Of a DNA stretch of 64,000 nucleotides, positions 61,008-62,348 are shown piece by piece (position 1 is the first letter of the stretch; each line of letters begins with the position of its first letter). Origin of the DNA: Escherichia coli (GTDB lineage: Bacteria > Pseudomonadota > Gammaproteobacteria > Enterobacterales > Enterobacteriaceae); assembly GCF_013122565.1 (NCBI RefSeq), contig NZ_CP053258.1, one strand, 5' to 3'. The notes under the pieces were generated by a model. That model saw only the letters and a program-made list of their open reading frames with translations, was not told where the DNA came from and made no database searches. The position numbers and the translations under genes were made by a program.

Positions 61008-62348
61008 TCAGAACGCGTAGTTAAAGTTAGTCCCGAACAGCCAGGCTTTACCTTCAGATTTAAAGGTATATGCTGCTGGTCCTTCACCTTCAGTAAACTT
61101 CACATTCTGACCGTGCATATAAGATGCACCAACGTCAATGGATGCATCTTCATTAAATGCATAAGTCGCACCTGCACTTAACCACAGACGATCCTGATCT
61201 GGGATAGAGATAGAACGTTTATCTGCCGGAACCGGGCTGTCATCGAATGCAATACCCGTACGGAAGGTCCAGTTTTTATCGTGGTAGTAGGTTGTACCTA
61301 ACGCGATACGGTAAGCATCCCGGAAACCTTCGTCTTTATAGAACAGCGTTTGACCAGAGTCTCCTTTCGCTTTCAGTTCCTGGAATTGACTCCAACTGGT
61401 ATACGCCAGACTATAGTGGATAGCCCATTGTGGTGCGACACGGTTATAGCCAGAAATTTCCCACATCTCAGGTAAATTCAGCGTCAAGGACCCATTTTGG
61501 GTTGCACCCATTGTGCCATATGGTAAACCCATGCTACCCAAAATGTTGTTCAGATTTGGGTTGATGGAGCTTTTGTAATCTCCTTCAAAGTCAATTTTCA
61601 CTTCTGAACGATAGGTTAGGCCCCAACGGTTATCTTTATCCAGTTCATAAAGAATACCGGCGTTCCAGCCGAATCCCCATTCATCACCCTTGAGATGAGC
61701 AATTTGCGAATCCGGTGTATTGATGCCGTTTGTCCAACTTTGTGGCACGCCTTGCGCTATCAGTTGTTGGGAAAGCAATGGACCGAGTGAACCGGCAGTA
61801 CGCTCAATTTTTGCCTTAGCGTATACAGCATCAAAACCAAGACCAAAACTCCAGCTATTGTTAAGGCGGTAGGCTCCGCTAAGGTTAAGGTTGATCGTCT
61901 GCAGATCGGTTTTACCGCCATAGATTCCAGCAGCGTAGTTATCATTAAATTCCGTGGCCAGACCATAGTTCGAGGTAATAGAAGCCCCCCAACCAAACTG
62001 ATCGTTAATAGGTGCTACGAAATGTAGGTTAGGCACCCACGCAGTTGGTGCAATATTATCTGCATCAGCACGCTGGCCCGTTAAATCGGAACGCCCAGAA
62101 ATATCTACATCCGGATCAATATAAACCGCACCCGCAGAAAATGTCGGGCGGTCAAACATGGTAATCAATGCGGGGTTACGGCTGACGTTACCTGCATCAT
62201 CGGCAATTGCGCCTTCCCCTGAATAAGCCCGGCCCAGGCCAGAGGAAGAAAATTCGTTTAACTGAAAGCCTGCCGACCAGGCCTGGGTGGAGATAAGTGC
62301 CACTGCGACTGCGAGAGCAGACTTTGTAAACAGGGTTTTCTGGCTCAT
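61008..62348 (-). CDS. fadL: Long-chain fatty acid outer-membrane transporter FadL
   Basis: ORF 61008-62354; start placed at [35 protein letters not shown] (signal peptide), C-terminal beta-barrel ending FGTNFNYAF. Confidence 0.94.

Follow-up and report, generated by a model that had tools for sequence, protein, structure and literature searches.

A minority type of the fatty-acid channel FadL in Escherichia coli, with a divergent 1.05 kb cassette of probable foreign origin

The window analyzed here, a 64,000-nucleotide stretch of an Escherichia coli contig (NZ_CP053258.1, assembly GCF_013122565.1), carries an intact fadL gene. We propose, as a reading that we consider likely in its entirety, that this gene encodes a minority form of the channel (hereafter, type II) that combines a conserved core with a divergent 1.05 kb cassette, that the cassette is an old import since exchanged among strains, and that phages and antibodies have driven its retention. 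According to this proposal, type II would have entered Escherichia long ago from outside the Escherichia–Salmonella lineage, would have passed between strains through homologous recombination, with the conserved ends of the gene as anchors, and may have been kept at intermediate frequency by the altered surface that it would present to FadL-binding phages (those with T2-type gp38 adhesins) and to antibodies, with fatty-acid uptake expected to be unimpaired by the surface change. The divergent loop allele is itself already known and published (PMC12175518); the modest addition made here is that the difference between the K-12 type (type I) and type II is a single co-inherited, very old cassette of 1 kb whose nearest kin lie outside Escherichia. 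The gene and its parts are as follows.

61008–62348, minus strand: fadL, 446 aa plus stop, delimited from the ORF list and the sequence.
62106–62348, minus strand: conserved 5' part of fadL (gene nt 1–243), with the signal peptide (residues 1–25), the hatch (26–67) and strand S1.
61059–62105, minus strand: divergent cassette (gene nt 244–1290, residue 82 to ~430), with loops L1–L7, strands S2–S13 and the start of S14.
61008–61058, minus strand: conserved 3' end of fadL (end of S14 and stop), delimited by comparison with K-12.

The product matched the FadL of PDB 1T16 in a phmmer search (E = 1e-211, over residues 28–448 of the 448-aa ORF that opens with MVM (MVMSQ...) at an alternative in-frame ATG 6 bases upstream, at 62354), with lesser matches to P. 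aeruginosa FadL, CymD and TbuX, and in DNA sequence the window gene is 99.8% identical to the gene annotated as fadL in E. coli O145 RM9872. The record for an identical gene (L089) carries the Pfam domain Toluene_X (PF03349), which places the product in that family. An AlphaFold2 model built with 39 enterobacterial FadL sequences as input, of moderate confidence (mean pLDDT 72.7), contains the 14 barrel strands of the FadL-family fold, and FadL structures were its best Foldseek matches in the PDB (TM 0.84–0.90, E about 1e-53 to 1e-55). The hatch, badly modelled by AlphaFold2 (pLDDT <50 over residues 1–48), was recognized from its sequence: residues 26–67, including the NPA motif N58-P59-A60, are 100% identical to K-12. 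The order of the surrounding genes, yfcZ-fadL-yfdF-like-mlaA-yfdC-tRNA-Arg-dsdC, is that of E. coli.

The yfdF-like gene downstream of fadL (59349–60641, minus strand) is an AT-rich ORF of 430 aa with no Pfam hit, and its length varies among strains, from 352 aa in K-12 and 343 in O157:H7 to 424 in O145 RM9872 and 415–423 in others. It is broken by IS1 in Combat13F7, and strains with the subclass C allele described below are without it, mlaA following directly after fadL. Compared with K-12, the window ORF contains an additional ~230 nt around 60040–60330 in which D/I/N codons abound. The spacer between this ORF and fadL holds a perfect 11-bp inverted repeat (AAGTCACCTGC ATA GCAGGTGACTT, 60962–60990), about 20–45 nt past the fadL stop, which may plausibly act as a transcription terminator hairpin, its T-run being weak on the fadL strand.

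We aligned the window protein with K-12 FadL (the PDB 1T16 sequence and RefSeq WP_001295701.1) and mapped the differences onto the structure. Segments between the strands of FadL alternate between extracellular loops and periplasmic turns, and the loop boundaries used here are the inter-strand segments of the AlphaFold2 model superposed on crystal structures rather than crystal coordinates. The seven extracellular loops, with their differences from K-12, are as follows.

62043–62102, minus strand: L1, residues 83–102; 7 of 19 aligned residues differ, plus a 1-residue insertion.
61920–61952, minus strand: L2, residues 133–143; 4 of 11 residues differ.
61707–61796, minus strand: L3, residues 185–214, with two short helices; 19 of 29 aligned residues differ, with 9 indel columns.
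61500–61571, minus strand: L4, residues 260–283, with one helix; 13 of 22 aligned residues differ, plus a 2-residue insertion.
61317–61394, minus strand: L5, residues 319–344; 8 of 26 residues differ.
61191–61241, minus strand: L6, residues 370–386, well conserved; 2 of 17 residues differ.
61071–61088, minus strand: L7, residues 421–426, 4 residues longer than in K-12; GEGPAA versus G----P, with 4 indel columns.

Identity to K-12 is 79.7% over the whole protein, 100% over residues 1–80 and 74.9% over residues 81–446. The extracellular loops differ at 54 of 126 aligned residues (43%) and hold all 16 indel columns, whereas strands S2–S14 and the periplasmic turns differ at 34 of 230 residues (15%), an enrichment of changes in the loops with a Fisher odds ratio of 4.3 (p = 9e-9). 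Divergence is greatest in L3 (66%) and L4 (59%), intermediate in L1 (37%), L2 (36%) and L5 (31%) and lowest in L6 (12%), and L7 differs chiefly by its insertion. The four indels (L1 +1, L3 net −7, L4 +2, L7 +4) cancel, so that the window and K-12 proteins are both 446 aa. Every E. coli fadL allele examined is exactly 1,341 nt, despite the loop indels between types I and II. The signal peptide, the hatch (26–67), the kink-bearing strand S3 and strands S9, S10 and S11 are all identical to K-12.

The preliminary description of this DNA had suggested that the FadL loops differ from those of K-12, and the alignment bears this out, near-identity across the loops not being seen and 43% of loop residues being changed. 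Both peptides that it quoted lie in extracellular loops: residues 82–98 (62055–62105, in L1) align with NISGTSP-SGRSLKADN in K-12, and residues 193–215 (61704–61772, in L3) align with AGQIMQSPAGQTQQGQALAATANGIDS-NTK and are net 7 residues shorter. The loops are enriched in changes, but the sequence is divergent throughout from codon 82 to ~430 and not in the loops alone.

The extent of the divergent block was defined by sliding DNA identity to K-12 and O157. Over its 1.05 kb the cassette is on average ~72% identical to K-12 (54–81% per 100 nt) and has abrupt edges, whereas the flanks, the first ~243 nt of fadL, and its last 50 nt with the downstream spacer are 95–100% identical. Just 2 mismatches to K-12 precede gene nt 244; at the other end, clustered mismatches to K-12 end at 61059, one further mismatch lying at 61032, and in the comparison with O157 identity from 61048 onward is 49/50 and 50/50. 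The difference in the loops far exceeds chance, and it far exceeds ordinary strain variation as well: flanks at 95–100% identity surround a gene interior at 54–81% per 100 nt. An artefact or a private mutation is ruled out by the presence of the cassette at 99.6–99.7% identity in 72 complete genomes.

Synonymous sites bear on the age of the difference and on how it arose. By the Nei–Gojobori method, codons 81–432 compared with K-12 gave pS = 0.73, which is effectively saturated, and dN = 0.19, against dS = 0.034 and dN = 0 in codons 1–80; the same codons 81–432 compared between K-12 and Salmonella arizonae gave dS = 1.2 and dN = 0.045. The synonymous sites of the barrel strands, too, are near saturation (pS = 0.665 for the strands alone), and therefore the whole interior of the gene is old, separately evolved sequence. 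The overall dN/dS of the cassette is low (0.03–0.07), indicating purifying selection on most of it. One could picture the loop changes as having arisen in situ, by point mutation and positive selection on an ordinary E. coli fadL, in keeping with the clustering of amino-acid changes in loops and with the few positively selected sites found within the types of highly variable regions (HVRs) of FadL (PMC12175518). The synonymous-site data refute such a history and leave it next to no probability: strand pS stands at 0.665 against 0.03 in codons 1–80 of the same gene, identity drops sharply at gene nt 244 and is regained at nt 1290, and just 140 of the 254 codons that specify the same amino acid in the window and K-12 are identical. 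It is also extremely improbable that the window comes from another species and that the fadL divergence is simply that of orthologues. In favor of such a provenance, none of 5,426 complete E. coli genomes matches the flanks at more than 98.2% identity, but the flanks are 97–100% identical to K-12 and in E. coli gene order, the cassette recurs at 99.6–99.7% identity in the 72 complete E. coli genomes, and the divergent block starts and stops within fadL; the contrast between flanks and cassette refutes this explanation.

We surveyed the 5,426 complete RefSeq E. coli genomes using positions 61008–62100 of the window as the query, and found that fadL occurs in discrete types. Identity to the query was at least 99% in 72 of the 5,425 genomes classed, 95–99% in 2, 80–90% in 1,137 and 60–80% (about 72%) in 4,214. 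No genome fell at 90–95%, and the values form four identity classes at ~99.7%, 89%, 85% and 72%, the 80–90% band being made up of the ~89% class (roughly 217 genomes) and the ~85% class (roughly 920), as judged from whole-gene identity bands. Type I is thus carried by about 78% of the genomes classed and type II by about 22%. Within type I, which includes K-12, B strains and O157:H7, pairwise protein identity is about 99%. Type II comprises three DNA subclasses, A, B and C, with proteins 95.5–98% identical and dS of 0.4–1.2 between them; the L1 sequence is common to A and B, and C carries DITGHSDLTGQSANAKN. The window allele belongs to subclass A, the rarest, found in 74 genomes (1.4%), and three substitutions, none of which alters the protein, set it apart from the usual subclass A sequence. 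Two records labelled E. coli ATCC 8739 differ in fadL type, NZ_CP043852.1 (4.80 Mb) having subclass A at 99.7% identity to the window cassette and NZ_CP033020.1 (4.74 Mb) having type I at 71.8%; one of the two may be mislabelled or represent another strain.

The distribution of these alleles shows transfer among E. coli backgrounds as well as intragenic recombination. Across O145:H28, O78, O157:H16 Santai, and ETEC and APEC isolates, identity in the subclass A cassette is 99.6–99.7%. In O145 RM9872 (type II) and an O157:H7 strain (type I), fadL lies between genes for YfcZ and MlaA whose products are identical in the two strains, and subclass B is an intragenic mosaic, A-like from codon 81 to ~170 and C-like beyond. 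This spread of subclass A, the mosaic structure of subclass B and the pairing of O157:H7 with RM9872 show the incongruence with strain phylogeny and the intragenic recombination expected of "mosaic evolution" of outer membrane proteins; the enrichment of changes in the extracellular loops and the small number of discrete types are further features of it. The 243 nt conserved at the 5' end and the 50 nt conserved at the 3' end would be the likely anchors for homologous exchange. The window flanks differ by ~2% from those of O145 RM9872 and, with their ceiling of 98.2% identity to any complete E. coli genome, suggest that the window strain belongs to a poorly sampled E. coli-like lineage with standard gene order. 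The fadL block (about 61010–62600) is 99.8% identical to other strains, far closer than the flanks (52000–64000).

We searched for relatives of the cassette by scanning GTDB species representatives and building a neighbor-joining tree of residues 81–432 with 200 bootstraps. Type I groups with Salmonella, E. albertii, E. whittamii and Citrobacter amalonaticus (200/200; 92–95% protein identity) and has been inherited vertically. A separate clade (200/200) is made up by type II and includes Escherichia sp. MOD1-EC7003, Escherichia sp. E1V33, "E. coli" E69 and SCPM-O-B-8794. Its sister group is the FadL of Enterobacter soli, E. wuhouensis, Leclercia sp. 29361 and a MAG (200/200), with Kluyvera next, and E. 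coli fadL alleles were monophyletic in 0 of 200 bootstraps. Protein identity between type II and the nearest FadL outside Escherichia is 83–85% over residues 81–446. The GC content at third codon positions (GC3) is 41–45% in type II cassettes (41% in the window) compared with 50% in type I and 58–65% in the nearest outside relatives, and synonymous sites are saturated between the cassette and its Enterobacter soli and Leclercia sp. relatives. Because of this saturation and the GC3 mismatch, the Enterobacter soli, Leclercia and Kluyvera relatives are not the donors. We favor the interpretation that type II is an old import from an unsampled lineage outside Escherichia–Salmonella, to which the tree topology points. 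The two types might instead be a very old balanced polymorphism native to Escherichia that predates the split from Salmonella and involved no import, a possibility that we take seriously but regard as unlikely. Several Escherichia species-level lineages besides E. coli carry type II, its subclasses are deeply diverged (dS 0.4–1.2), a close donor was not found in the scan, and the GC3 of the cassette (41–45%) is unlike that of outside relatives (58–65%), all of which a native polymorphism would accommodate. Such a polymorphism is opposed by the placement of type II as sister to FadL of Enterobacter soli, Leclercia sp. and Kluyvera in 200 of 200 bootstraps and by the nesting of type I with Salmonella, C. 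amalonaticus, E. albertii and E. whittamii, for it would have to predate those genera and then have been lost repeatedly.

Residues important to transport are conserved in the window protein. R183, K338, D369, G231, A103, S126 and N58-P59-A60 show no variation among 39 enterobacterial FadLs, and R183 and K338 are, we assume, the pocket residues R157 and K317. The residues altered in deposited FadL mutant structures are likewise conserved, namely N33/P34 (NPA motif), A77, S100, G212 and D348. Strand S3, with its kink and lateral opening, is identical to K-12, and A103 and S126 correspond to A77 and S100 in mature K-12 numbering, a mapping taken from the names of the PDB mutant entries. D369, the equivalent of Asp348 of the crystallographic mutant, directly precedes L6, and alignment with the D348A structure (PDB 3PF1) places it in a conserved AFDDSP motif. 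Given this conservation of transport residues, the window FadL is most likely a working fatty-acid channel with a different surface. Because L1–L5 differ from K-12 at 31–66% of residues, function as a T2 receptor is not to be assumed for the window allele, and the loop sequences suggest that type II may change susceptibility to phages.

Selection could have acted on something other than surface recognition. In the crystal structure of FadL, L3 and L4 presumably form the hydrophobic low-affinity substrate groove, and these are the most changed loops (66% and 59%), L3 being net 7 residues shorter; the allele types might therefore be kept mainly for differences in substrate capture or transport and not for phage or immune recognition. 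We consider this improbable in view of the conserved hatch, S3 kink and invariant R183 and K338, and of the similar discrete loop types in many unrelated phage-receptor outer membrane proteins (PMC12175518), which argue for a shared pressure on surface recognition. A bolder combination, which we offer speculatively and think doubtful, is that type II is an ancient import from an unsampled enterobacterial lineage of lower GC, held under phage-driven frequency-dependent selection, and that its L3/L4 groove alters which hydrophobic substrates are captured. If this were true, the two FadL types would differ functionally in transport and not only as phage receptors, and the susceptibility of a strain to FadL-dependent phages could be predicted from its fadL type. 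FadL is both a receptor for T2-type phages and a surface antigen, and the surface type that a strain carries is useful to know for the prediction of phage host range, the choice of therapeutic phages and the design of antibodies. FadL is the primary T2 receptor in K-12 (PMC8594841; PMC12529663). About a fifth of complete E. coli genomes are of a non-K-12 type, and the receptor mapping in four sources has used K-12 strains (PMC12032242; PMC12529663; PMC8594841; bioRxiv 10.64898/2026.04.02.716166). We found no loop-level map of gp38 on FadL in these four sources, which deal with K-12 FadL only, and no account of the phage consequences of non-K-12 FadL types in the gp38 and receptor papers found.

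FadL is the worked example of outer membrane protein "mosaic evolution" in E. coli given by Cao et al. (2025, Appl Environ Microbiol; PMC12175518). That study describes five highly variable regions, all in extracellular loops and with 4, 2, 2, 3 and 2 major types, reports that the FadL protein tree is incongruent with lineages, gives the distribution of types over 3,094 genomes, and states that the sources of the HVRs are unknown. The L3 sequence of the window is HVR1_2_0 in its Data set S1. The picture obtained here agrees with theirs in that there are few discrete loop types, incongruent with strain phylogeny. It differs in that the HVR types are treated there as locally recombining units, whereas the type I/II difference found here is one 1.05 kb cassette that is divergent throughout, and where the published study leaves the HVR sources open, we found a sister group for the cassette in the FadL of Enterobacter soli, Leclercia sp. 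and Kluyvera.

Among characterized proteins, K-12 FadL (P10384; PDB 1T16/1T1L and mutant structures) shares with the window protein the yfcZ-fadL-yfdF-mlaA locus, a length of 446 aa and the 14-strand barrel, and the two agree in every residue of the signal peptide, the hatch domain, S1 and the S3 kink region; K-12 FadL differs in L1–L5 and L7, in four indels and in having only ~72% identical DNA across the cassette. The closest non-Escherichia relatives of the cassette, the FadL of Enterobacter soli, E. wuhouensis and Leclercia sp. 29361, have GC3 of 62–65% compared with 41% in the cassette, and their N-terminal 80 residues are 90–92% identical. Alleles of OmpC, OmpF, OmpA, LamB and FhuA likewise combine a conserved barrel with discrete loop types and intragenic recombination (PMC12175518). 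Unlike these proteins, FadL works as a monomer, a lateral-diffusion channel bearing a hatch domain, and is neither a general porin nor a TonB-dependent transporter.
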